A stretch of 64,000 bases of DNA from Leptolyngbyaceae cyanobacterium. Lineage in GTDB: Bacteria; Cyanobacteriota; Cyanobacteriia; Phormidesmidales; Phormidesmidaceae. Under the pieces are notes generated by a model that did not search any database, had not been told where the DNA came from, and saw nothing but the letters and a program-made list of their open reading frames with translations. The stretch lies in the NCBI GenBank assembly GCA_965263355.1, contig CBDHHL010000032.1:2080001-2144000 (forward strand), read 5' to 3'. The translations under genes and the position numbers were made by a program. Shown piece after piece: positions 3,907 through 40,033 of the stretch; within the stretch, counting starts at the first letter, position 1; every line of letters begins with the position of its first letter.

Positions 3907-4206
3907 ATGACTCCCAACCAAGCAGCCGTTACTCATGCCATCGCCGTTCTCCTATCCACCACCCCAGAAACTCGCCTGGGCCAGTTGCTCAAAGTATGTC
4001 TGGCCGCCAAAGTAGATGGCGACGTCGATGCCAAAGCCCAGGAGCTTTTCCAAGATACTGACAACCTGGCCCACTGGGTCCAAGCAGTCATCGGTGATGA
4101 TGGCCAATACACCCCTGACGAATGGCAAGCCCTGGGGGAAATGGATCTCCTAGAGAATGTTGAAAAATTTGTTGAGGGACTACTGGCCGAAGTCGAAGCA
4201 CTGTAG
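3907..4206 (+). CDS. Hypothetical protein
   Basis: 99-aa ATG ORF, acidic and helical, with host-like codon usage. Confidence 0.7.
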   Translation: MTPNQAAVTHAIAVLLSTTPETRLGQLLKVCLAAKVDGDVDAKAQELFQDTDNLAHWVQAVIGDDGQYTPDEWQALGEMDLLENVEKFVEGLLAEVEAL

Positions 4207-4275
4207 CCTTAAAGGCATTGGCTTAAGTTGTCATAGTCATAAGGCTAAGCCAACGTTGTGATCCAGGGTGTGTTT

Positions 4276-4686
4276 ATGTCTCTTTTTTCATTTTCGGGTA
4301 AGCGTCCTGACAATCTAGGCGTTAACCAAGGCAAGCTGTTGGCCTGTCCGGGTACGCCCAACTGTGTCAGCAGTCAGGCCGATGCCAGTGACAAGCAGCA
4401 TTTTATTGAGGCGATTACTACGGATAAAGCCCCTAAGGATGCGATCGCATCCCTTAAAGCCATCATTGAAGCCATGGAACGCTCCACCATCAATGAAGTG
4501 ACCGACAACTACCTCTATGCCGAATTTGCCAGTAAGCTGATGGGATTTGTCGATGACATCGAATTCTATGCTGAGCCATCTGGCGTTATCCATGTCCGTT
4601 CAGCTGCTCGTTTGGGTAAATCAGACCTGGGCGTCAATCGTAAACGAGTCGATGCCATTCGAGAAAAATTTCAAGCAAACGGTTAA
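4276..4686 (+). CDS. DUF1499 family protein
   Basis: CPGTPNCVSSQ, GFVDDIEF and IHVRSAARLGKSDLGVNRKRV motifs. Confidence 0.9.
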   Translation: MSLFSFSGKRPDNLGVNQGKLLACPGTPNCVSSQADASDKQHFIEAITTDKAPKDAIASLKAIIEAMERSTINEVTDNYLYAEFASKLMGFVDDIEFYAEPSGVIHVRSAARLGKSDLGVNRKRVDAIREKFQANG

Positions 4687-4963
4687 ACCACCATAAAGGA
4701 CAGTCACCTATATGCAAATGTCTGTATCTGTCTGAATACAGATATTTTGTCTTAAAACAAGATTATATTTTCTCAAAAATAGACTCACTGTAACCTTTAT
4801 AGTCTCAACTTGAGATTAAGATTGTCTGCTTCTATGCACGCAGATTGCAATCGGCTAGAAAGCGCCCTAAGGAGTGTCTCAACAAAAGATAAAATAGCTT
4901 CACTTTGAGACTCAATAAAAGACAAAATTGTCTTGCCTTAAGACTTTACTTTTACTACGAACT

Positions 4964-5776
4964 ATGCCAAATCAGTGGGATAACCTTTTCAAAAATGAAG
5001 GCATCTGGAAAGGGCACTTTACCAGGCTAACGCCTGACGGGACTGAGGTTAGCGATGTGCCTTCTCGCTTAACCCTGGAGCGCACCAGTGCTGCAAGTGC
5101 CCGATTTCAAGTGACCCGCTATCCCACAGGGCAACCGCCACAAGAAACTAAAACAGAATTTGCCAGCATCAATCGCAGCAGTCTGTTTTGTGAGGATGGT
5201 TCGTTTACCAAAGGGTCCATGCAGTGGAGCCCCATTTCTAAGTTTGGGACAGAATTTGGTTTGACGTTGCCAAATGTCCGGCTCAGGCTAGTTCAGCTGT
5301 TTGAACCGGGCGGGCAGCTTGCCGAACTGGTTTTGATTCGAGAAACCCGTGAAGGTCACACAGGTGCTGTTCGTCCTCAACTTTCTGTAGACCAAATTTT
5401 GGGCACATGGCGGGGGCAAGCGATTACCTACCGTCCAGATTGGTCAGTGTCAAAACCTATTGCCACTGAGTTAACGGTCTCCCAGTCATCCGTTAATACA
5501 ATTCTGCAAACATGGCGTGCAGATGGGGTTAGCGGTCAGTCTCAAGCCAGACTAGAAGGCAACCGTTTGCTGTTTGAGCAAACAGGGTATCAGCTGTTGT
5601 GTTTACCCAATGGTGGTTCATCACTTTGCCCACAAACGATTCAACGCCAAACAGCATTTCGATGTGAAATTGGTTGGTTAATTGAGCCAACCATACGACT
5701 AAGACTGACCCGTGAGTATCAGGCCGATGGTAGCTGGGTGCAGCAAACCTGGATTAAGGAAGAGAAGATGGCCTAG
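4964..5776 (+). CDS. DUF3598 family protein
   Basis: QWDNLFKNEGIWKGHFTRL N-terminus; two beta-barrel halves (LVLIRETR; LGTWRGQA). Confidence 0.8.
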   Translation: MPNQWDNLFKNEGIWKGHFTRLTPDGTEVSDVPSRLTLERTSAASARFQVTRYPTGQPPQETKTEFASINRSSLFCEDGSFTKGSMQWSPISKFGTEFGLTLPNVRLRLVQLFEPGGQLAELVLIRETREGHTGAVRPQLSVDQILGTWRGQAITYRPDWSVSKPIATELTVSQSSVNTILQTWRADGVSGQSQARLEGNRLLFEQTGYQLLCLPNGGSSLCPQTIQRQTAFRCEIGWLIEPTIRLRLTREYQADGSWVQQTWIKEEKMA

Positions 5777-11100: not shown

Positions 11101-13294
11101 CACCTAATAAGGTAATCGTGTCGTTCCCCTCGGTCCCCTGGAGTATGTCACTGGTGTTGTTGCTAGCAACAATTGAGCTAACGTCCTCAAAGCTTAAACC
11201 GTTACTGAAAATGGTGTCCAGATTGCCCTGGTTGTTGCCAGTTATGGTCCAAGTGGTTACCTGTTCGGGACCCTGTAGAGTCTCTGCTCCGAGAATAGTG
11301 ACTGGGTCTTTAAATGCAGCGGAGCCCCCATCTGCTACGGAATCATGTAGTGTAATCGTCCCCGTATGGTCAGTGCGACCGATGGAAATATTGGTAAATC
11401 CATCTTGGATGGCTAAAAGATCTGTTTCTAAAAGGTCTAATGCTGGGCTACCTACGGATGAGCCAATTTCAATAGCTTGATTTTGGCTCCAAGGCTGTAA
11501 AGATAATGTGTTGCCCTTAACAGAATCATTCCCCCCCTGCAACGAAATGGCATCTCCTTGGAGGATGATATTATCAGCAGTTAAGGTGCCTCGAACTAGT
11601 GTCCAATATTGGGCGCTCAGATTAACATCTCCAGCTTCCATAGCTGCGCGTGTATCAAGCAGCTGAATATCAATAATATTGCCAGAAATAGTGATATCTC
11701 GCCCTGAGGTATCGATTAAATCACCGGCTTTTTCTACTAAGAATTGTCCTGCACCATTATTGTCGGCATCAGCGATAAAGCTGATAGAGCCAGAGCCTGG
11801 CTGAAATGTAAGGGCATCGTCTCCGCCTAAATTTCGAATGATAATATTGTTATTGGCCTGTAGAACAATATTGGAGTCGCCATCCCAGGTTTCTAAGGTA
11901 TTTTCAGTGATAGTAAACCAGCCACTGTCTCCATCCTCTGCAATGACTGTGCCAGAATTGAGCAATAATTCTGCATCGCCGTTCGCAGTACCCGCACCAT
12001 CAACGACTTGAATATTGTCTGGATCAAAAAGAATACTGCCAAACTCTCCTTGGGGAGCACTAACAGAAAACTGTCCGGTGAACCCTAGGTTTGATTTACC
12101 AGAGATTTCAATAAAGCCACCATTGCCGGCTAATTCACCCCCCTGGGCTTGGACATTTCCTGCAAAAGAAGTCGCCTGATCAGCCCAAACAATAATCTCA
12201 CCCCCATTTCCATGTGCTAGGGCATTGGCACTGAGTTGAGTATTTTGATCAACTCGGGTATGGGTGGCATTGGGCAAAGGGCCTGCTCCTTGATAACTAC
12301 CACCAATGGAAATCTCTCCCCCCTGGTGAATCCCATCCGCATTGATGTCGGCATCTATTAAAGAGACTTGGTTACCTAAAATGGCAATTTGTCCACCATA
12401 GTCTCCGGTCGTCTGAACGGTACCAGATATGCTGGCTGTTCCGGGCTCGAGCGCAGGGATATGTTGGGTCAGTAGCGGGGTGCCATCGGCTGCGATCGCA
12501 AGGGTGTCGGCATGGTCAGCCCCCTGACCGGTCAGAAGAGCGGGTAGCTGGGTCGGCGTGATGTCGAGGGATGCCTCCGCGTCAGACCAGGGTTCAATTT
12601 CTAACGCAAGGAGTTGTCCCGTTTGACTAAGATTGACACGATTGGTATTGCTGACAGCAGTTATAGTAATGTTGCCACCTGGAGCACTCAAGGTACCGGT
12701 GTTAACAACGCCGCCCCCCAGTAACCGTAGATTGCGTCCAGGGGCTACTTCTAGAGTCCCCAGATTAATAATATAGTTAGGGTTAGATACAAAGGCAAAG
12801 CTTTGGGGAGGACCTGCTAAAGCCTGGTAGTCGGTTCCGTCAGCGAACCAGCCTTGTTCAAAGCCAATGGCATCGGCTGTCGCTGCAGTAAAATCTCCCT
12901 GTAAATTGAGATGGGCATTGGGTCCAAAAAAGAGACCGGCGGGATTCAGCAACCATAGATTAGCGCTATTAGATACGGCTAAGCCTCCATGGATGATGGA
13001 GGCTTGTCCCCCTGTAATTCGGCCTAGGACATTTTCAACCGACTCTGGGGCGATAAAGGTAACGGTTTGGTCCGGCAATATATGAAAAGTTTCAAACTGG
13101 TGGAAGAGATTAGCCCCATCTGTTGACTGAACACCCCCAATCACCTGAATTTGATAACCATCGGTGGTGGTGAATGTCGCTCCTGTGGATAGGATTTGTC
13201 CCCAAACAGGAGAATCACCTAGCGTAAAAATACTCAACCAGCCCACTATTTGTAAGGCACACCGATTGAACTGATGCCATTTTGAATGGCTCAT
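8192..13294 (-). CDS. Filamentous-hemagglutinin N-terminal domain protein with RTX-like repeats and a C-terminal CHAT (caspase-like) domain
   Basis: NLFHQF...LLNPAGLFFGPNA haemagglutination-activity domain; GGDGNNTL-type repeats; CHAT dyad VHLASHG and VLSACNT; HPFYWA terminus. Confidence 0.9.
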   Translation of the reverse strand: MSHSKWHQFNRCALQIVGWLSIFTLGDSPVWGQILSTGATFTTTDGYQIQVIGGVQSTDGANLFHQFETFHILPDQTVTFIAPESVENVLGRITGGQASIIHGGLAVSNSANLWLLNPAGLFFGPNAHLNLQGDFTAATADAIGFEQGWFADGTDYQALAGPPQSFAFVSNPNYIINLGTLEVAPGRNLRLLGGGVVNTGTLSAPGGNITITAVSNTNRVNLSQTGQLLALEIEPWSDAEASLDITPTQLPALLTGQGADHADTLAIAADGTPLLTQHIPALEPGTASISGTVQTTGDYGGQIAILGNQVSLIDADINADGIHQGGEISIGGSYQGAGPLPNATHTRVDQNTQLSANALAHGNGGEIIVWADQATSFAGNVQAQGGELAGNGGFIEISGKSNLGFTGQFSVSAPQGEFGSILFDPDNIQVVDGAGTANGDAELLLNSGTVIAEDGDSGWFTITENTLETWDGDSNIVLQANNNIIIRNLGGDDALTFQPGSGSISFIADADNNGAGQFLVEKAGDLIDTSGRDITISGNIIDIQLLDTRAAMEAGDVNLSAQYWTLVRGTLTADNIILQGDAISLQGGNDSVKGNTLSLQPWSQNQAIEIGSSVGSPALDLLETDLLAIQDGFTNISIGRTDHTGTITLHDSVADGGSAAFKDPVTILGAETLQGPEQVTTWTITGNNQGNLDTIFSNGLSFEDVSSIVASNNTSDILQGTEGNDTITLLGENSGTFKGIDFDGIHNIRGAGGDDTVIFANGVAALSGSIDGGDGNNTLDYSATTNGVTIDLATQTVDNVTAFTNIENFQGSSGEDTLRGTNDDDAIAITADNTGTLGTVTFSNIENIDAGDGDDQIAITGILTGSLDGGAGDNTLVGNNTASVWNLTAVNTGNGPGVASFANIQNLTAGNQADQINFLAEGAQFTGVLDGGDGALTLSGDTINVGTAIKGADELSLQPASPARDIHLGGTGLTPDLAISTVELSAIKNGFTAITIGHPEGTGTITLGADVTLPASATIQSPHDNGSIDTQGFDLSAPELTVIAAQDITAANLTAVNGVTLIGGDVVNTQTIVTSNNLDGGDVLVNADNTITIQQIDTTGLNGIGGNVTLSSVEAIEVASIRAEGNMAGGNVDITTHEFFRATDSFTALDGTTASISTAAVNGTGAITIRHAGNGATAFNVGDGSLLGNHAALTSGDFKIDPGNSFLNSYTLGNIAILTQALPQSVVEPPVTIPSRPTIITPTATDPFIPNSPLLRNRTNPLDDSVSATDVRRSNSALFEHLENSFSDQFKSHLNLYDRVSVASPSLTAAQETLGDVEVLTGIKPGVLYVYFLPSDPKDSTEFHGNDLQANDELGLLLLTHSGQAIRKKVNGVTRSQVMAVTETFYAQVTNSISSSSQYLPPAQQLYDWFITPIENELQQQGIQSLALAMDTGLRTLPMAALHNGDEYLVERYSLGVIPSFSLTDFNAENFLYSELENTQMLAMGASQFPSQSLLPAVPEELEIVTKVFNESEVFLNENFTLTNLQNQIARNKFGVVHLASHGVFEPGAPRNSYIQLWDQPLQLDQVHSLGLQDANIALMVLSACNTALGDREAEYGFAGLAVNAGVQTSIASLWPISDEGTLGLMTYFYENLQRQPVRANALQQAQLAMLRGELTFANGILYGYDERSLAHFPELEYHGWWNFEHPFYWATYTLVGSPW

Positions 13295-30245: not shown

Positions 30246-31682
30246 TTAACGGGTAAAAATCAAGATGATGATTGATAGCAGCAAGATACTACATAGTAAA
30301 AGACTAAGGGTGAGCTGTTGCTTGAGTTGAGCGATGCGGTGGGTTGCGATCGCATCCACCTCGTCCATTATTTGTTCCTTCTCTCGTTTTCGAATTATCT
30401 CCTGTCTAGCGATTTCTCGTTCATAAATATAGGACTGGCTACTCATCAAAAACTGGTGATGTTCTTCACTTAAACTTTGACTACCTGCCCAAGTTCTAGC
30501 TTCTTGCAACGATTGTTTAGTGAGCAACCAGCGGTCATCGCACTTTGAGGATAGCCAATTATCCAACATCTTTTGGTAGGGACACAGGCAGGTTAATTGA
30601 CGTTCCACCCACCAGGGTCTAAAGATTTCGGCGTAGATTTGATTGGCAACTTTGAGATAGGCTCCTTCTTTGACAGCTAGCCCCGTCAGCTGTAGTTCGT
30701 TTTGTTCTGAGCTGCCGTCTAACAAGATAATGCGCGATTGTAATATGTCTCGATACACTTCTAACAGTCGCTGGGCACGGGAGCTATGGAGTAATCGGTC
30801 TTGAATAGTTTTGAGGTGTTCAGGGGTGTCTTGCTGTAGCCAGTCTTGGATGATTTTGCGTTCGACGAGTTTGTCGATATAGGGGGCTGGATAAGCCCGA
30901 GGTTCGATATCGGCCTCGCTGACAATGAGCTGGCATAGTTTTTGGGTTAAAAATGGCTGCCCACCGGTCCAGCGTAAAATGCTTTGAATCAGGCCTTCTG
31001 AATACTCTGATAAATGGGCAAGTCCGGCACTAAGGAGTTTGGCTTCATCTAGGGTGAAGCCTCTGAGTTGGATGGTGGTGCCGATGTTGAAAGGGGTGCG
31101 ATCTCGAGCTGAAATTAGCTCAGATGGGGTAGCTACACCAATCAGTGTGAAGGTCAGGCGACGATAGTCAGGCTGTTCGGCCCGTTCTTGGTAAAAGTAA
31201 CGGATGAGGGAAAAGAAGTCGTCGCTAAAGTCGAATTGAAACAGGCTATCGATTTCGTCAATAAAGATAACAATAGGCTGCTGGATTTCCTTGAGGAGAA
31301 CGTCCTCAATAAATTCGCTAAAGCGTTGAATAGGGGAGAGTCCGTCTCGTTCTTGCCACCAGGGAATAACTTTTAGTTTGATGCCCAGGCTACGGCTAAG
31401 CCGACGGATAACACCCAGGTACCAGGCGTCGGAAGTCATGCCGTGTTCGACGATGGCGGTGACTTCGATAACGCCGCAGGCGATGCCTTTTGCTTTGAGG
31501 CGTTGGGTGGTTTGTACCCGCAGGCTGGATTTGCCCATCTGACGGGCATTGAAAATATGGCAGTATTCGCTGGCCATCAGGGCCAGGAAAAGGTCTTCGT
31601 CGGCCTGGCGGGAGATGTAGGTGGGGGCATTCTGGCGTAGGGCTCCGCCGACAGTGTATTGATAGGCGGATGTTTCACTCAT
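30246..31682 (-). CDS. AAA_35-family STAND-like ATPase with C-terminal transmembrane helix
   Basis: YQYTVGGAL, Walker A NARQMGKSS, Walker [16 protein letters not shown] and WTGGQPFLTQKLC; hydrophobic C-terminus. Confidence 0.9.
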   Translation of the reverse strand: MSETSAYQYTVGGALRQNAPTYISRQADEDLFLALMASEYCHIFNARQMGKSSLRVQTTQRLKAKGIACGVIEVTAIVEHGMTSDAWYLGVIRRLSRSLGIKLKVIPWWQERDGLSPIQRFSEFIEDVLLKEIQQPIVIFIDEIDSLFQFDFSDDFFSLIRYFYQERAEQPDYRRLTFTLIGVATPSELISARDRTPFNIGTTIQLRGFTLDEAKLLSAGLAHLSEYSEGLIQSILRWTGGQPFLTQKLCQLIVSEADIEPRAYPAPYIDKLVERKIIQDWLQQDTPEHLKTIQDRLLHSSRAQRLLEVYRDILQSRIILLDGSSEQNELQLTGLAVKEGAYLKVANQIYAEIFRPWWVERQLTCLCPYQKMLDNWLSSKCDDRWLLTKQSLQEARTWAGSQSLSEEHHQFLMSSQSYIYEREIARQEIIRKREKEQIMDEVDAIATHRIAQLKQQLTLSLLLCSILLLSIIILIFTR

Positions 31683-31760
31683 GGAATGTTTATATTAACG
31701 ATTACACTCAATTGCATTCGGCTCTTTTCTCTTGAATAGCTAGTAAAGTCTTCTGTCTAC

Positions 31761-34700
31761 CTAGGATTGAGTTTCAGGACGGCAAAAAGAAAGTGCTTCT
31801 ATTGGATTGGTTTCCAAGTATTTAGTTAAATGCTTGCAGCCAAGAGCTAGCAGACTGTCTAAATCATACATTGGCCACACACGAATAGTCTGATCACGAC
31901 TGACCGTAAATATTTTTTGTCCATCAGAGCTAAAGTTAGCATTCCATACATCATCGGTATGCCCCCTTAGCTCAGCAATTTGGCTACCAGAAGTAGTATC
32001 CCAAACGCGAGCTGTATTATCTGCACTAGCGGTGACAATGTTTCGTCCATCAGGACTAAATCTTGCATTTCGGATAGCTTCAGTGTGACCTCTTAGATTA
32101 GCAATCTGCTCTCCAGAAACAGTGTCCCAAACTTTTACGGTGTTATCCTTTGTATTAGTAGCAAGAATATATTGGCCTTTAATAGGACTGAATACTATGT
32201 TCTTGAGGCTTTTGATACTGCCGTCCAATCTTGAAATAAGCTGACCAGAATTTGTATTCCAGATGAATATATTGTCATCACTGGCAGTTAAGACACTCTG
32301 TGGATCAGGACTAGGAATTATGTTCCAAATATCTTTGTTATGGCCATTAAACTCAGTTATGAGGCTGCCAGAGTCGACATCCCATACTTTCGCAAAATTA
32401 TTATCGGCAATAATAATTTGTTTTCCATCAAAGCTGAAATTTGCGGTGATGGTCCGAGCGCTATATTCTTCCAGTGAAAGAATGACATTACCAGAGTCTA
32501 CATCCCATACCCTGGTTGTTCCATTACTATCATGAGTAACAAGACGTCGTCCATTGGGACTAATAAATGCTTCAGTGCCAAAAACATCATCAATATTGAT
32601 AATGTTTTCTCCAGTGCGAGCGTTCCAAACACTAATGCTAAATATATCGTGGGTAAAAATCCGGCGTTCATCACTACTAAATTTCACGTCACGCACAGTA
32701 CCAGGATTTGGATTTCCAAGTTTAGATACAATGCGCCCGGAGTTTACATCCAATATCCAACCCGTTCTACTATCATCAACAGCAAGAAGACGTTGTCCAT
32801 CAACACTAATATCTATGACAGAGGCAAAATCTTTCTTAAGGTTTACAATGCGATGTCTTGGTTCTACATCCCATACTCGAGCGGTCTTATCTTCGCTCGC
32901 AGTGACAATATGTCGGCCATCGTGACTAAAATTTGCATCCCAGATATTACTTTCATGTCCCCATAGTCCACCTACTAGGCGACCAGATTCAACGTCCCAT
33001 ACTCGAGCAGTCTCATCGAAACTTGCGGTAACAATACGTTGACTATCAGAGCTAAAATTTGCATTTCTGATTTGTGCGGTATGCCCTCTCAGTTCTGTAA
33101 GCAATTCACTAGATTCAACATCCCACACTTGAGCAGTCGCCCCTCTAGTGGTTAATAGACGTCGTCCATCAGGACTAAAATCCACATCAAAATCATAGAA
33201 AAAGTTCCTGAATTGGGCTGTGATTTTACCGGACTTGATATTCAGTATTTGTGCAGTATTGTTTTCACTCACAGTAACAACCTGCTCCCCATCAGGACTA
33301 AAGAAAGCACTGTTGATTTTGTTGGTATCTTCTTTGAACTCGAAAACCAAAGAATCAGAATCAATTTCTAGTATCTGGACTGTGCCAGCATTACTGCCAA
33401 TCACAATCTGTTCCCCATCAGGACTAAAATTATGATTGTCTATCTTGCCAATATGGCTATTAAGCTCAATAACCTTTTCCCCAGAATCAACCTCCCAGAT
33501 CTGAACATTTCCATCTAAGCTTGCGGTAACAATACGCTTTCCATTAGAAATAAAGAAAGCGTTAATAGTCTGGTCGCTCAGACCTTCGATATGAGTAATG
33601 AGTTCGCCAGATTCCATGCTCCAGATTTTAGCAGTGTTATCAAAACTAGCCGTAACAATACGTTGGCTATCTGGATCAAAGTTTGCACTTAGGATACTGC
33701 TTGTGTGGCCTTTCAGCTCATGAACAAGTCTACCTGAATCGGCATCCCATACTCTAGATGTCTTATCACGACTAGCCGTAACAATGCGCCGACCATCGGG
33801 ACTAAAGTTCGCATCAATGACACCATCTGTATGTCTCGATAGATGATGAATTGCGGGAAGGTGATCTCTAAGAGCTATATCTAGAGCTAGTATTGGATTA
33901 AAAGCTGGAGAGGCTTCACCATTCCCTAATTGTTGCATACTCTTACTCAGCTTTTGAGCAGTTTTCATTGCTATCAACAATGATTCTACATTTGGAAACC
34001 GTTGCCATTGCTGTATAGCAATGGTTCCATCTCGCTCTAACTGTACTCCTTCTCTTGCTAGACCTAATTTTGCTACTGCTTCGTCTTGCTGTGCTTGGGC
34101 ATTGCGTAACTTCTCTTCTGCATCTTCAGTTAATTGTTCAGCATTATTCAGTTCCTGCTGTGCAGCCTCTATCGCTGCTTGGGCCGTCTGAACATCTTGC
34201 AAGGCCACCTGTTCTTTCTGCTGTGTCTCTAACAAATTTTCATTAGCCTGCTGAGCCTCTTCCTTAAATTCCTCAGCTTCTCCCTGAAACTTCTTGGCAG
34301 CTTTTTCAGCGTTCTTGACATCCTTTTCAGCACTCTTGGCAGCTTTCTCTAGAGTTTGCCTGTCTTTTTCTAAGGCTTGATTGTCTACCAATAATTGATC
34401 ATATTGAGTAACAGCTTTTTGAGCCCTTATATCAGCATCTTCTGCTGCAATTAAGCGATTAGCCGCAGTACCAACTGCAATCACAGCACCAATAATGATG
34501 CTCGCTAGCAAATATCCCCCCCACCGCAACCGCTGCCCCGTCTTCCTTAGCTCTCCTTTTTGTTCCTGCAACTGCTGTTCCTTTTCATGCAGTTCTTCAT
34601 CCGCTTTTTTTAGTCGCGCTTCAGCTTTCTCATTAGCTTCCGCCAAAATCGCCTTCGCCTGCTGCTCTGCCGTTAAAACCTCTCGCAGCTCCCGCCGCCC

Positions 34701-35956
34701 CAGTTCCTGGCTAGCATCCAAAAACAACCGATCATCATCACTTAGCCGTTTCCCAGTCGCCCAACCCCGCGCCTGTTGTAACGCATCCCCCTGCAACAAT
34801 AAAGACTCATCCTGTCGCCCAGAAGCCACCCACGCTGCAATCGTCGTCCCATAGGGCCGCAACTTCAACAACCCAGCATCAATCCATTCCTGGTCAAATA
34901 CCGCCTTATAAATTGGGTTTGCCACCCGCAAATAGTTCTGTTCTTCCCGTATCAGACCCGATAATCGCAATTCAATCTGTTCATCGTTGCTATCTGCTAC
35001 GATTTCCTCCACCTGCAACACCCGTTGATACAGCCCCAACAGCCGACCAGTTCTCTCCTCATCCGCCAGAATCCGGTCCCGAATCGTTTTCAAATGCACC
35101 GACACATCCTGAGCTTCCCAGTCATCAATCACCCGCGACTGCACCAACTGTGCCACCAGCTCCGCTTCACTGCCAGCAGCAATAGTAAACTGCGAAGTAG
35201 CAATCAACTCACACAGTCGCTGGGTCAAAACGGCTGTCCCTTGGTCCAGTGCAAAATCTCATGCAGCACCGCCACCGGATTCTCAGCCAACCCTGCCACC
35301 CCTGCCGCCAGAGGGCTAATTTCCGTAGCCTGAAACCCCTTCAGATCAATCAGCCGACCCCCAATATTAAACGACGTGCGCGTCTTATCCCGAATCAAAT
35401 CATTCGGTGTCGCCACCCCTAACAGCACAAAACTCAGCCGATCAAATGCATTTAAATCTGACCGCTCCTGATAAAACGACCGAATCAGGGCAAAAAAGTC
35501 GTCATTAAAGTCAAACTTAAACAGACTGTCGATTTCATCGATAAAAATAACAATCGGCCCAGACAGTTCGTTCAGCAACACATCCTCAACAAACTCACTA
35601 AACCGCTGTACCGGCGACAACCCATCCCGCTCTCGCCACCAGGGCAACACCTTCATCGACAGCCCCAAACTCCGGCTCAGCCTGCGGATCAAACCCAAGT
35701 ACCACTCCGCCGATGTAGCCCCCTCACCAACAATGCTATTCACCTCCACCACACCACAGGCCACACCATCCGCTTTCAGCCGCTGCATCACCTGCACCCG
35801 CAGGCTCGACTTACCCATCTGCCGCGAGTTAAACACATAGCAATACTCCCCAGCCTTCAGAGCATCGTATAGCTCTCGATCCGCCTCGCGAGTCACATAG
35901 GTAGGCGCATCTTGCCTGAGAGCACCACCCACCGTGTACTGATATGCTGCAGCCAT
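31761..35956 (-). CDS. AAA_35 ATPase-TM-coiled coil-WD40 (16 repeats) protein; one gene split by a 1-nt frameshift at ~35226
   Basis: ORF 35225-35956 ends GQPF* and ORF 31761-35228 begins LTQRLC; one extra T restores GQPFLTQ as in the paralog. Walker [35 protein letters not shown]; 16 WD40 repeats counted. Confidence 0.88.
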
Positions 35957-35959
35957 GGT

Positions 35960-36000
35960 TTACCCCTCCAAATGCTCCCGAAAATACTCTCGATACATCT
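35960..36000. repeat. 41-bp direct repeat, a copy of the 3' end of the CHAT-TIR-ATPase gene
   Basis: ttacccctccaaatgctcccgaaaatactctcgatacatct vs 37796-37836, 3 mismatches. Confidence 0.9.
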
Positions 36001-36011
36001 TATGACGACAC

Positions 36012-36305
36012 TTACCCAATCCCTAACTGATTCAGAAGTGCTTCATGGGAAATAGTCTCCTGACGATTCCGCTGACGCTTCTCTTTCTTTCCGTCCAATG
36101 GAATATCTACTAAGGACAATACTGGTAATAATGTAGCCGCCTTAAACGCCTCGATATCCTGAATTAACTCATCCAATGACTCTCCCCAAGGCTCCACAGC
36201 ATTGGCGGTACAGCTTAAAATTTCTCCCCGCTCACCGTAATAAACTTCTCTAATGATATGGTCACCATTTTCCTCTCGAAAAACTCGGTAATTCCAGCTC
36301 AGCAT
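36012..36305 (-). CDS. Hypothetical protein, candidate antitoxin downstream of RelE
   Basis: Coupled to relE (TAATG overlap at 36305); C-terminal ETISHEALLNQLG resembles RelB/ParD-type tails. Confidence 0.65.
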   Translation of the reverse strand: MLSWNYRVFREENGDHIIREVYYGERGEILSCTANAVEPWGESLDELIQDIEAFKAATLLPVLSLVDIPLDGKKEKRQRNRQETISHEALLNQLGIG

Positions 36306-36601
36306 TACAGATCCTCCTGTTTACCTCGAAAGAAAAATTCATGACTGCGCTTTTCAGCAATGCGCTGAATCTCTACAATCCGCACCTGATTGTCTACATC
36401 ATAAAGTATGCGAAACTTACTGATCCGCAATTCCCACTCAGCTATATCATTTGCCCGCATGCGCTTACGATTTCGAGTTTCCGTCGTTGGTTCATGACGC
36501 AGCTGAATCTCAATACCTTCCAGAATTTTGACCTGCTCATGTTTTTGAAAGTATGTCAGATCCTGGATCGCAGCTGAAGTGTAGTCAATGCTATACATCA
36601 A
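36305..36601 (-). CDS. RelE/ParE-family toxin
   Basis: YSIDYTSAAIQDL...WELRISKFRILYDVD...IVEIQRIAEK. Confidence 0.85.
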   Translation of the reverse strand: MMYSIDYTSAAIQDLTYFQKHEQVKILEGIEIQLRHEPTTETRNRKRMRANDIAEWELRISKFRILYDVDNQVRIVEIQRIAEKRSHEFFFRGKQEDL

Positions 36602-36794
36602 AGGGTGAGTGGAAACCTCTACAATTTAATATTTCTGACAAAATTATACGCCACACCCATCGTTTATCTTAGAGAAGCATCGGAAAACTATGTTTATTCC
36701 CAGCAGGGTATCTTGTCTAATGAAGTTGAAAAAGGTCGAACCGCCACCCCTAAAGAATCCATAAACATCGTGAAGTTTTCTGGAGACGCTGAAC

Positions 36795-37304
36795 ATGTCA
36801 CCCACAGAGTATAAGCAATTATTCAACCAAGCTTATCAGACATACCATGCCAGTCCGGCGTTTGATACTGACGCCTACTTTGACCCTAATACGCCTGAAA
36901 GCGATATCCCAGAAATTCCAGAGATTCCTCTATGCGATGATCTGGCTTTAGAGATGCTAAAGGCAAAGGTACCCTACTGGGAGCACTATAGTTGGATAAA
37001 AGCGTGTGATGGTGCCCTTTGCAGCCTTGTTTTTAACGCTAACTATGACCTGGCCAACGAGTTGGCTGCATGGCTGATGGCAAATGCGCCTAAAGGCGTT
37101 GCTGAGCAGTATCCCGACCTCGTAAACTATGCCGCTGGTGACTTTCCGGTAGAGCAGGTTGATCGTCAGCATGAAATGCTGTCTTACATCAAAGAACAGA
37201 AATGGCGTAATGAACCCCGACGAGAGATCGAAATTCCACAAGGGTCTCCTGATGTTCCTCCTTGGCGGTTAGCCAAGCAGACAATGCCTCAAACATCCGC
37301 ATAA
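36795..37304 (+). CDS. Hypothetical protein within the insert
   Basis: 169-aa ATG ORF, acidic; no recognisable motif. Confidence 0.6.
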   Translation: MSPTEYKQLFNQAYQTYHASPAFDTDAYFDPNTPESDIPEIPEIPLCDDLALEMLKAKVPYWEHYSWIKACDGALCSLVFNANYDLANELAAWLMANAPKGVAEQYPDLVNYAAGDFPVEQVDRQHEMLSYIKEQKWRNEPRREIEIPQGSPDVPPWRLAKQTMPQTSA

Positions 37305-37624
37305 GTTCTTAGAAGTTGTTAATAAACAACCTCATAATTTAAATTCTACATGTTGAAACTTTTGCAAAAATCGATCCAGAACATAGATAATCGTCCCTGC
37401 CGTAACCCCAAACTTAATGCTATTAGGGATAGCTCAGTACGGTGGGTTGCAGGGCGGCGTTCCGGCCCTGTCCAGGGGGGTTGGGGAACACGGAAGGACC
37501 CCAAGCAACACCTTTAATGCCACACCAACCGCCAGAGTTACCACCTGAAACCATAAGCTTTTTTTAACAGGTCCTTACGGTTTTTACATTCATAGGATCG
37601 AGGATTTTATAACATGCCAACTCA

Positions 37625-37712
37625 CCCCTCCTGGGAGGGGTGCCGCAGGTGGGGTGGGTTTCGAGCACTTGCGCCAACGACCAACCCACCCCGTTGCCCC
37701 TCCCAGGAGGGG
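37625..37712. repeat. Palindromic REP/MITE-like element
   Basis: CCCCTCCTGGGAGGGG / CCCCTCCCAGGAGGGG perfect 16-bp inverted repeat plus GGGGTGGGTT / AACCCACCCC. Confidence 0.8.
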
Positions 37713-37795
37713 AAATGGTATTCCGATTTACCTCAAGCAAACTATGGAAGTTATTAAATCCTCATTCCATAGCGTTTTGCTAAATTGTAGTTCCC

Positions 37796-40033
37796 TTACC
37801 CCTCCAAATGCTCCTGAAAATACTCGCGATAAATCTCACATAATGGCGATGCCTGATTCCCCGACAGCGTTACCAGCCCCATACTTTCCAACTTAAACGA
37901 AGACTCTGCATCAATATCCACCGGACGACGCTTTGTTACCACCTGCCGAAACGCTTCTGCCAGCTGCGGATAGTCCTGTAGTACATATAAATGCCGCCGC
38001 AGATGATCACTGTAAATGCCTGCTTCCGTCGCCGCTGTCTCAGTTAATGCATTTATGCCCATATCATCCCGCCGCAGATGATACAGCGCCTTTCTTATCA
38101 AATAGGGATGTCCCCCTACCAATTCCATCAACGCCTCCGTCTGACTCGCACTGGCCGACACCCCATACCGCTGGGCCAAATCCTGTACTTGCTCCGCCGA
38201 AAACTCTTCTAACTCCACATTTTTGCCTACATTAAATGGCGACTGGTTAATATTCAACGGCACATAGGCCTCGGTAGAATGCACCACCACCAGCCGCAGT
38301 TTCTCCCATAGCTCGCTACCAAAATCCCCATAGCGGGCCGACTCATACCAGGACCGCAACAACCCAAAGAAATCATCCGCTACAGTGGCATGGGGAAACA
38401 CCATATCCACCTCGTCCAACGCCAATATCAGCGGCGTTTCCAGCTCCTCTAGCAAACACTCTTCAAAATAGGCGATGCACTTATCCTTACTACCAAAGCC
38501 CATCCAATAGTCTTCCAGCTCCTTGAGCTTTTTCAACCTGCGCCCCACCTGGGTGCAAAGCCACTTCAGCAATAGATCTAAATCATGAAACAGCCGACTG
38601 TCCGCCCGCTGAAAACTTACGGGCACCGTTGCATAGCCCAGCTCTCGACCATGGTTTAAAATCCGGGCCATCAGCGATGTTTTGCCCATTTGCCGGGGCG
38701 CTTTGATACGAATTAACGACCCTGACTGCTCAATTTCAGCAAAGCAGTCAATTTCAATGGGGGGACGATCGACATATAGTCCTGACTTTAAGGGGACAGA
38801 TCCCCCTGGCTCTCGCTGTAGCTCCGGTTCTGCCACCGGTAAAGGGGGCCGGTCGATACTGTCGATGACTGGCCGAATGGGGAGAACAGGTTCACCTACC
38901 TCATCCGGAGGCACAACGATGGCTTTCCTTTGCTGGTTGGCTGATGTTTGCATCAGCGACATTAGCTCCTCAAGTAAAACTGGAGTATCTACCGCTGACT
39001 GCCATTGCCGCTGCTGAATCTGTTCTAAATAGCTGCGCAGTTCATAGTTGAGCGGATCATCCATGGGAAACTGCACCCGAATGGGCAAAATCATCGGGCG
39101 ATCGCACTGGTCCCGTAAACTGCGGGCACGCTTCACCTCTTCGGTCACCATTTCGCTAGTGGCGGAAAGTGGGGATAGCAATAGCAAAAAATAGTCGCAC
39201 TGGTGCAGTTCTGCGCTGATGCGTTTGCGCCAGTCCTCACCAAGCTTAATGCTTTCTGCTGCCATAAAAGGGGTATGACCAGCCTGCTCAAAGGCGGTAT
39301 AAAACTGCTGGGCTAGCTCCTTATCGGGAGCTTCATCGCGATAGCTAATAAAAATACGCTGGGTGGCAGTTCGACGGTCTGAAGCACTAGCTTTACTAAC
39401 AAACCGATCATCGATGACTTTGCCCGCACGCGTTCTTAGTACCGGAGTCGCCACTTCATTAGAAAAATCTTCCAAATCAATGGCAGTACGACCCATTTCA
39501 TAGGCGGCTTCGTAGGAACTGCTATGGCCCAGGGCTGTGTAAAACCCCCGCGAAAAGCTAATGGCCGCTACATCACCAATGGGCTGATTCATGCCAATGA
39601 CGCAGGATACAAACTGGCTAATGGCCTGGGCCTGACTATCGGAATAGCAGGCATTGAGTAGGACGCATTCTACATTGGATAAGTTCTGAAATAATCGCGC
39701 CAGTGCTCGCGTCGGTACCAGCTGACTACGGCCTCGGCTATCATCCAGCACCAGACCATGGTCACCGACACCATGGCCAATAAAGTGGACAATATGGGGC
39801 TGGTGGGACATCAACGCCTGGATCAGATCCTCAGTGCGTACAGCCCATTCTGAAACGATTTGAAACTGATCTCGTTCTTTAGATAGCTGAATACTGCGCT
39901 GAATACTACGTACTTCTTCATCCAAACTAAGTCTGGATGTGTCGCCAGGATTGGCCGCTAGTACTAGAATTTTGCGAACTGGCAACTTGGCATTTGTGGG
40001 CATAGATCCAGATATTTTGGCGATTGTCAACAA
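37796..40033 (-). CDS. CHAT (caspase-like)-TIR-AAA_35 ATPase fusion (likely ATG start at 40003)
   Basis: CHAT: KILVLAANP, VHFIGHG, LNACYS. TIR: RIFISYR...GEDW...SEMVTEEV. ATPase: APRQMGKTS, LALDEVD, SPFNVG, VGGHPYL. Confidence 0.92.
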   Translation of the reverse strand: MLTIAKISGSMPTNAKLPVRKILVLAANPGDTSRLSLDEEVRSIQRSIQLSKERDQFQIVSEWAVRTEDLIQALMSHQPHIVHFIGHGVGDHGLVLDDSRGRSQLVPTRALARLFQNLSNVECVLLNACYSDSQAQAISQFVSCVIGMNQPIGDVAAISFSRGFYTALGHSSSYEAAYEMGRTAIDLEDFSNEVATPVLRTRAGKVIDDRFVSKASASDRRTATQRIFISYRDEAPDKELAQQFYTAFEQAGHTPFMAAESIKLGEDWRKRISAELHQCDYFLLLLSPLSATSEMVTEEVKRARSLRDQCDRPMILPIRVQFPMDDPLNYELRSYLEQIQQRQWQSAVDTPVLLEELMSLMQTSANQQRKAIVVPPDEVGEPVLPIRPVIDSIDRPPLPVAEPELQREPGGSVPLKSGLYVDRPPIEIDCFAEIEQSGSLIRIKAPRQMGKTSLMARILNHGRELGYATVPVSFQRADSRLFHDLDLLLKWLCTQVGRRLKKLKELEDYWMGFGSKDKCIAYFEECLLEELETPLILALDEVDMVFPHATVADDFFGLLRSWYESARYGDFGSELWEKLRLVVVHSTEAYVPLNINQSPFNVGKNVELEEFSAEQVQDLAQRYGVSASASQTEALMELVGGHPYLIRKALYHLRRDDMGINALTETAATEAGIYSDHLRRHLYVLQDYPQLAEAFRQVVTKRRPVDIDAESSFKLESMGLVTLSGNQASPLCEIYREYFQEHLEG

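Follow-up and report, generated by a model that had tools for sequence, protein, structure and literature searches.

Three co-directional genes for STAND ATPases form a real and well-conserved locus in a stretch of 64,000 nucleotides (nt) from a Leptolyngbyaceae cyanobacterium (assembly GCA_965263355.1, contig CBDHHL010000032.1, positions 2,080,001 to 2,144,000), which is called the window below. Gene 1 specifies an ATPase with CHAT and TIR effector domains and no sensor domain, gene 2 an ATPase followed by a predicted transmembrane helix and a WD40 propeller, and gene 3 an ATPase that ends in a hydrophobic helix and carries no outer domain (Table 1). The preferred reading, which is given about an even chance of being right, is that genes 2 and 1 form a mixed-oligomer receptor with defence or regulated death as its output and gene 3 as an accessory third copy. 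A split sensor/effector pair of STAND proteins had been proposed from the DNA letters by a preceding sequence-only reading. This proposal is now backed by conserved coupling of the two genes, by natural single-chain fusions of their ATPases, and by clues to membrane topology.

Pairing of effector and receptor ATPases

The sequence-only reading had assigned all three ATPases to the AAA_35 family and had described their Walker motifs as intact, and both assignments hold. Pfam searches returned AAA_35 with E values of 8e-135 for gene 1, 1e-26 for the N-terminal piece of gene 2, and 6e-35 for gene 3, and the patterns RQMGK[ST]S and hhhhDE[IV]D were found in the expected genes. As is typical of STAND nucleotide-binding domains, the Lys and Ser/Thr of Walker A and the acidic residues of Walker B are kept in genes 1, 2, and 3. 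GHP or GQP, the GxP motif of the helical domain, is invariant or nearly so, and a winged helix follows the nucleotide-binding domain, again as in STAND proteins. Two subtypes of AAA_35, about 25% identical, could be distinguished, subtype A resembling gene 1 and subtype B resembling genes 2 and 3. The first position of Walker A is Asn in genes 2 and 3 instead of the usual Gly or Ala, which is the norm for subtype B. Profile comparison related genes 2 and 3 to gene 1 with a probability of 99.9%; a sequence search with the subtype-B profile hit none of the solved structures.

Linkage of all three genes, as suggested by the window, was confirmed in a neighbourhood survey for genes 1 and 2, but gene 3 was mostly absent. 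The survey comprised 33 loci retrieved with the gene 1 ATPase, four of which contained too little downstream DNA. In 27 of the 29 informative loci a subtype-B gene is located downstream of gene 1, and two lack it. Direct coupling was seen in 18 of the 33 loci, one of them counted across a run of Ns (L024); an apparent gene 1-gene 2 fusion at this locus was rejected as an artefact of the gap, and the locus was kept as coupled. A subtype-B partner was also present in seven of eight further, more distant loci.

Both subtypes also occur within one polypeptide. Single chains of the order B-A were found in 16 of the 25 clusters listed (P0013-P0025, P0028, P0031, P0036) and, free of Ns, at L062 (3787-6042, minus strand). 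The order A-B is represented by P0033 and P0037, and two B modules followed by a transmembrane helix by P0029 and P0030. The B-A form carries neither effector nor sensor. These fusions, seen at the level of sequence, are the best evidence available for contact between the subtypes, which they support. A correlation between the distances of A and B proteins (30 paired loci; rho 0.68, 0 of 2000 permutations) was not counted as evidence of contact, since linked genes share their inheritance. Where subtype A has Gln (QSPFNVG), subtype B has an Arg that almost never varies (RTPFNIG in gene 3), and it is possible that this residue acts as a one-way arginine finger between the subtypes.

The family is abundant, with 10-27 AAA_35 matches per genome in five of five genomes. 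Repeatedly, among 40 loci taken from whole genomes, a single A gene is arrayed with two to four B genes (L036, L044, L054, L055, L056, L058), and three ATPases in a row are therefore not special per se. In these arrays the B genes are of the B-transmembrane-WD40 type and the single A gene is short; its N-terminal part of about 110 amino acids was without a match in Pfam or NCBIfam in both cases scanned (L036, L042). In some loci a second STAND module follows the pair, nSTAND1-WD40 in L007 and CHAT-nSTAND1 in L008 and L012, the latter two also containing DUF1822.

Gene 1 comprises 745 amino acids if counted from a TTG codon, an ATG at 40003 being the likelier start. Its CHAT domain (Pfam E value 1e-10) contains both dyad residues noted before, H87 in HFIGHG and C129 in LNAC, and of 31 aligned homologues, 28 keep the dyad and three have gaps there. 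The best match in the PDB is the SAVED-CHAT protein 8TL0 (E value 5.5e-15, root-mean-square deviation 2.7-3.8 A). With this dyad and its modelled caspase-hemoglobinase fold, the domain qualifies as a predicted protease. The TIR domain (TIR_2, Pfam E value 3e-19) likewise retains Glu at the catalytic position, as had been proposed: E299 in SEMVTEE is paired with the TEYEL-motif Glu of 7UXR in a weak alignment (E value 0.015) and is present in 26 of 31 rows, with four gaps and one Val. Having the catalytic Glu of the alphaC helix, the domain is classed as a putative NADase.

The predicted model of gene 1 has a mean confidence score (pLDDT) of 83. The folds nearest to it are the SAVED-CHAT filament 8TL0 and the tetramer core of the TIR-NB-ARC protein RPP1, and its ATPase is closest to the archaeal proteins SSO1545 (2FNA) and PAB2304 (2QEN). 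Comparison with six orthologues with measurable synonymous divergence (dS) gave ratios of nonsynonymous to synonymous substitution (dN/dS) of 0.02-0.07. Conservation of the dyad and of Glu299, together with purifying selection on the effectors, is in line with the preferred reading. The CHAT-TIR combination is patchily spread, with matches at an E value of 1e-60 in nine of 201 genomes of the phylum. A broken gene 1 without partner gene, its ATPase 86% identical, was detected on a contig binned as Actinomycetota (L027), possibly reflecting transfer or misbinning.

The receptor slot and its junction

In the window, gene 2 is divided into two open reading frames (35225-35956 and 31761-35228). An extra A at 35226 is present in contigs from three of three sequencing runs, which stem from two samples of one study and are possibly the source of the window itself. 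Since the run contigs carry the missing base, the frameshift at about 35226 is an assembly error, and gene 2 as a pseudogene is ruled out by the same finding. The corrected product has about 1398 amino acids.

All 16 WD40 blades that had been counted for gene 2 were recovered, with a blade-to-blade identity of 34% (median) and at most 66%, and a coiled-coil-like stretch lies between the helix and the propeller. The predicted transmembrane helix was found as one hydrophobic stretch with a Kyte-Doolittle peak of 2.05, but it is weak in six orthologues. Several observations bear on its orientation. Of 26 subtype-B proteins, 25 have more Lys and Arg ahead of the helix than behind it. The slot behind the helix is occupied by CHASE2 (L004, L068) or by a periplasmic binding protein (L073) in subtype-B proteins with a transmembrane helix, and GAF (L038), FHA (L061), and receiver (L063) domains sit on subtype-B proteins without one, these domain placements resting on small numbers. 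It is therefore likely, as far as sequence features can tell, that the propeller of gene 2 faces outward, into the periplasm or the thylakoid lumen. A CHAT domain follows the gene 2 helix in L001 (11021-14071) and, as a separate open reading frame, in L030 (12860-13984); placed in this way, a domain of protease fold may be located on the outer side of the membrane.

The outer part of gene 2 is exchanged among the closest relatives of the locus. There, identity to the window is 94-96% for the ATPase of gene 1 and 89-93% for that of gene 3, and the outer part of gene 2 is a different WD40 domain (L002, 41%), a CHAT domain (L001), or CHASE2 with further helices (L004). In L006, gene 2 is reduced to a short remnant between intact genes 1 and 3.

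Genes 1 and 2 are not adjacent in the window; about 1.8 kb with three small open reading frames separate them. The insert is bordered by a direct repeat of the 3' end of gene 1 (41 nt, 93% identical, 35960-36000 and 37796-37836). A copy of the final 40-47 nt of gene 1 immediately precedes gene 2 in four loci, the window, L004, L005, and L084, the junction copies outside the window lying at 12614-12753 and 13210-13364 in L004, 11851-11998 in L005, and 590-729 in L084, with similar left boundaries. The cargo between the copies differs and consists of ParE-like, VapC-like, or helix-turn-helix (HTH) genes. L004 contains two extra junction copies and the stub of a former gene 2. These sequence arrangements suggest recombination at the gene 1/gene 2 junction, which looks like a reusable site of insertion or exchange.

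The third ATPase and other features of the window

That gene 3 is an ATPase with a predicted transmembrane tail was borne out, its C-terminal hydrophobic stretch reaching a Kyte-Doolittle value of 2.95. The protein follows gene 2 collinearly for some 450 amino acids up to the helix, where it ends, and it is 52% identical to gene 2 of L002. In the protein collection searched, the tail matched 11 clusters only, and those with a name belong to Leptothoe or Leptolyngbyaceae; ten of the 11 comprise 476-505 amino acids, and the eight that were read stop at or shortly past the helix. Gene 3 was found in eight of 150 genomes of the family. Its ATPase is under purifying selection, with dN/dS values of 0.05-0.08 at a dS of 0.5-0.9 against five orthologues. 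In a tree calculated by a quick method without bootstrap, gene 3 forms a long-stemmed clade of its own (support 100) inside the clade of partners of CHAT-TIR genes. Because of this selection and of its long-stemmed clade among gene 1 partners, gene 3 is, judged from sequence comparison, a conserved paralogue, an old duplicate of gene 2 that has been fixed in a new role.

What this role is likely to be is limited by its distribution. Gene 3 adjoins gene 1 in four of the 33 related loci (L001, L002, L004, L006) and in none of the eight more distant ones. The three-gene system with an adaptor envisaged by the sequence-only reading thus exists in one lineage, but genes 1 and 2 can be linked without gene 3, and since most gene 1 loci lack it, gene 3 is accessory and no obligatory adaptor. 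Walker A and B are kept, and His42 and Cys367 are fixed in gene 3 and absent from 76 other subtype-B proteins. The transmembrane helix is its least conserved part (26-83% identity). Unrelated subtype-B proteins with a helix tail occur in L059 and L060, and in L054 such a protein has arisen by breakage. Broken copies of gene 3 are present in two draft genomes (L084, L085). In L082, a gene of the Rpn nuclease family (3988-5040) is located directly upstream of the gene 3 orthologue, at the usual place of gene 2.

Table 1 Features of the three-ATPase locus and of the gene 1/gene 2 insert (positions in the window)
Feature	Position	Strand	Basis or match
Gene 1, subtype A, CHAT-TIR_2-AAA_35 STAND ATPase without sensor domain	37796..40033	-	Open reading frame list, Pfam
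CHAT protease domain (predicted) of gene 1; His87 39773-39775, Cys129 39647-39649	39434..39979	-	Pfam CHAT
TIR domain of gene 1; Glu299 39137-39139	38939..39367	-	Pfam, alignment to 7UXR
Subtype-A STAND ATPase of gene 1 (nucleotide-binding domain, helical domain, winged helix)	37811..38809	-	
Gene 2, subtype B, AAA_35-helical/coiled region-predicted transmembrane helix-coiled coil-16-blade WD40	31761..35956	-	
Predicted transmembrane helix of gene 2, moderately hydrophobic, basic residues before it	34461..34517	-	
WD40 region of gene 2, 16 blades	31854..33848	-	Best PDB match 2YMU (WRAP), E 4e-107
Gene 3, subtype B, AAA_35 and C-terminal hydrophobic helix, without outer domain	30246..31682	-	
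C-terminal hydrophobic helix of gene 3	30258-30314	-	
Gene 1/gene 2 insert with 41-nt direct repeat at both ends	35960..37836	.	Repeat comparison
ParE/RelE-like small open reading frame, 98 amino acids	36305..36601	-	Pfam ParE_toxin E 3e-4, 21.7 bits, below cut-off of 23
Open reading frame of 97 amino acids overlapping the ParE-like stop codon, no family	36012..36305	-	
Open reading frame of 169 amino acids, no family	36795..37304	+	91% identical copy in L004 insert

The look-alikes of the 97-amino-acid open reading frame in the insert are unnamed phage and bacterial proteins, which is a lead only. Two short dispersed repeats, at 37388-37509 and 37625-37729, are also found in the insert and have many copies in related genomes; the second has palindromic arms of 16 nt (37625-37640 and 37697-37712). 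Genes for TamB-like, DegP, histidine kinase, and RPE65 proteins are neighbours of the locus in the window. A scan for promoters and terminators gave a signal at or below chance.

Interpretation and relation to known systems

The scheme proposed for the pair is taken from STAND biology, and topology, binding, ligand, catalysis, and biological role are its inferred parts. Gene 2 would span the membrane with its exchangeable WD40 domain outside. A ligand bound there would cluster gene 2, the ATPase of which would switch and, by recruiting gene 1 ATPases, would nucleate a mixed ATPase oligomer. The TIR and CHAT domains of clustered gene 1 would thereby be activated and cleave NAD+ and protein, the output being a defence or regulated-death response. 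Gene 3 would join the same oligomer as a membrane-held B subunit and set its threshold, either as extra scaffold or as a brake. A defence output is plausible, the evidence for it being indirect: the type of effector, the turnover of gene 2, and the patchy spread.

A number of observations weigh against this scheme. In the TIR domain, Met replaces the Trp that usually precedes the Glu, and solved TIR structures were matched weakly. The gene 2 helix is rich in Ala and Gly and stays below the hydropathy threshold of 1.7 in the full-length proteins of L007, L008, L012, L013, L025, and L033. In L001, the domain behind the helix is CHAT, which is no obvious sensor, and a motif scan found its His but not the Cys. 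GUN4 is found on either side of the helix among relatives. Folding of a natural B-A fusion (pLDDT 75, predicted template modelling score (pTM) 0.47) yielded no confident arrangement of the domains relative to each other. Most gene 1 loci are devoid of gene 3. The AAA_35 family also carries GAF, CHASE2, receiver, GGDEF, kinase, and HTH domains, as would be expected for general signalling. Finally, the flanks are not a defence island, eight of 101 flanking proteins matching PADLOC models at 1e-20 in a comparison that had no control set.

As a rival explanation, the same mixed-ATPase receptor would serve ordinary envelope-stress or developmental signalling in a manner resembling two-component systems, with CHAT cutting a regulator, TIR making a nucleotide signal or acting as a scaffold, and no killing. 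The number of AAA_35 proteins per genome, the inputs (GAF, CHASE2, periplasmic binding protein, receiver) and outputs (kinase, GGDEF, HTH) of the family, the neighbours of the locus in the window, and the lack of a PADLOC model for the ATPases are in its favour, and the cyanobacterial CHAT protease HetF is developmental. The rapid exchange and breakage of gene 2, the patchy distribution, the toxin-antitoxin-like cargo at the junction, and the joint conservation of the TIR Glu and the protease dyad on one chain argue against mere signalling, which is considered rather improbable though a serious competitor. A different function of gene 3, as a second and independent input that senses a membrane-embedded or cytoplasmic cue with its helix or helical linker and needs no gene 2 to activate gene 1, appears less probable still. 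It would explain L006, where genes 1 and 3 are intact next to the gene 2 remnant, and it agrees with the kept Walker motifs and fixed His42 and Cys367 and with the family habit of one A gene with two to four B genes, that is, parallel inputs per effector; yet the poorly conserved helix is a better fit for an anchor than for a binding site, and other B genes in the L006 genome could act in trans.

Two further explanations have much less in their favour. If the hydrophobic stretch of gene 2 did not span a membrane, or if the protein faced the thylakoid lumen, the propeller would read a cytoplasmic or luminal ligand like APAF-1. Marginal hydrophobicity of several orthologues and subtype-B WD40 proteins free of a transmembrane helix (L057, L063) would be compatible with this, but CHASE2 and the periplasmic binding protein in the same slot and the positive-inside bias make it quite unlikely. 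That gene 3 is a decaying, truncated receptor without a role hardly deserves credence. A broken B gene in L054 (516 amino acids, with an integrase-like insert) reaches the same architecture by accident, and the copies in L084 and L085 are broken, but the selection estimate largely refutes decay, and the uniform size of the clusters and their common end at or near the helix are at odds with it as well.

The preferred mixed-oligomer reading can also be extended to a three-subunit transmembrane NLR complex consisting of a constant effector ATPase with protease and NADase, a constant membrane-anchored co-receptor ATPase, and an exchangeable outward-sensing receptor slot refilled by recombination at the repeated junction. 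This extension is put forward tentatively and is, on balance, doubtful.

The pair of genes 1 and 2 is already in print, as a prediction, in the form of the WRAP-type coupled STAND operon. According to the passage on WRAP in PMC9218822, which cites Dunin-Horkawicz 2014, a WRAP STAND-WD40 gene is found coupled with one for a TIR-STAND protein that in some cases includes a caspase domain, and the operon is conserved in cyanobacteria, shows fast turnover, and was proposed to function in prokaryotic innate immunity. The present locus resembles this operon (Npun_R6612 and its TIR-STAND partner; Dunin-Horkawicz, Kopec and Lupas 2014) in the coupling of STAND-WD40 and TIR-STAND and in the turnover of the propeller gene. 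In the family, a TIR-STAND gene with or without a caspase-type domain lies directly upstream of the STAND-WD40 gene, an arrangement interrupted in the window by the 1.8-kb insert. Unlike the WRAP domain, the propeller of the window is diverged (34% between blades) and devoid of recently amplified, near-identical blades, so that only the operon type is the same, and the third ATPase with only a transmembrane tail and the insert between genes 1 and 2 are further differences. The WRAP passage of PMC9218822 is silent on any membrane span, third gene, or exchange of domains, although the original 2014 paper may mention them. The subtype-B protein of L057 matches 2YMU end to end, including the non-repeated first strand (E value 2e-203).

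The Npun2340/2341 family, which we take to be Pfam AAA_35, presumably occurs in gene pairs. A passage of PMC8195603, which concerns NTPase-FGS proteins and not the architecture described here, gives the name of this family, in the MNS clade of the STAND NTPases (Leipe, Koonin and Aravind 2004); the closeness of the locus ATPase fold to archaeal SSO1545 and PAB2304 is a point of likeness to this clade. A survey of 589 STAND clades (PMC13581612) does not name AAA_35 in its main text and seven of its supplements, and three larger supplements may classify or test the clade. The parts of PMC7159879, PMC5587647, PMC10907252, and bioRxiv 10.1101/723619 consulted contain nothing on this type of locus beyond the WRAP structure. 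Neither a functional test of the family nor a paper on the third subunit was found in the literature covered, most subscription journals lying outside it.

Avs and bNACHT proteins share with the locus the STAND switch, a repeat sensor, and TIR or protease effectors. They are single chains that sense phage proteins in the cytoplasm, as described in the part of PMC10907252 dealing with them. The locus, unlike these, has sensor and effector on two ATPases of about 25% identity, and its ligand and switch are predicted to be on opposite sides of a membrane. No match to an Avs model was obtained in PADLOC, and no PADLOC or NCBIfam model covers the locus ATPases. A working analogy is provided by the NAIP-NLRC4 inflammasome and by plant sensor/helper NLR pairs, in which a sensor ATPase nucleates an oligomer of effector-bearing ATPases. 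These differ from the locus in belonging to another STAND clade and in recognising cytoplasmic ligands, and there is no evidence of a common origin of the pairing.

To the published operon type, the locus adds a conserved sensor-less third ATPase, an exchangeable receptor slot, and the evidence from fusions. Tested bacterial STAND receptors are single cytoplasmic chains in the account given in PMC10907252, whereas the AAA_35 family appears to divide sensor and effector between two subtypes, with the sensor across the membrane. The close relatives, some of them cultured, constitute a natural experiment in which a near-identical effector and third subunit are combined with four receptor states, so that membrane topology, mixed assembly, and the part played by the subunit without a sensor can be tested directly. 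If the three-subunit complex should prove true, it would be a cell-surface counterpart of the paired NLRs in which specificity is changed like a cassette, and it might serve the recognition of phage, predators, or non-kin in filaments.

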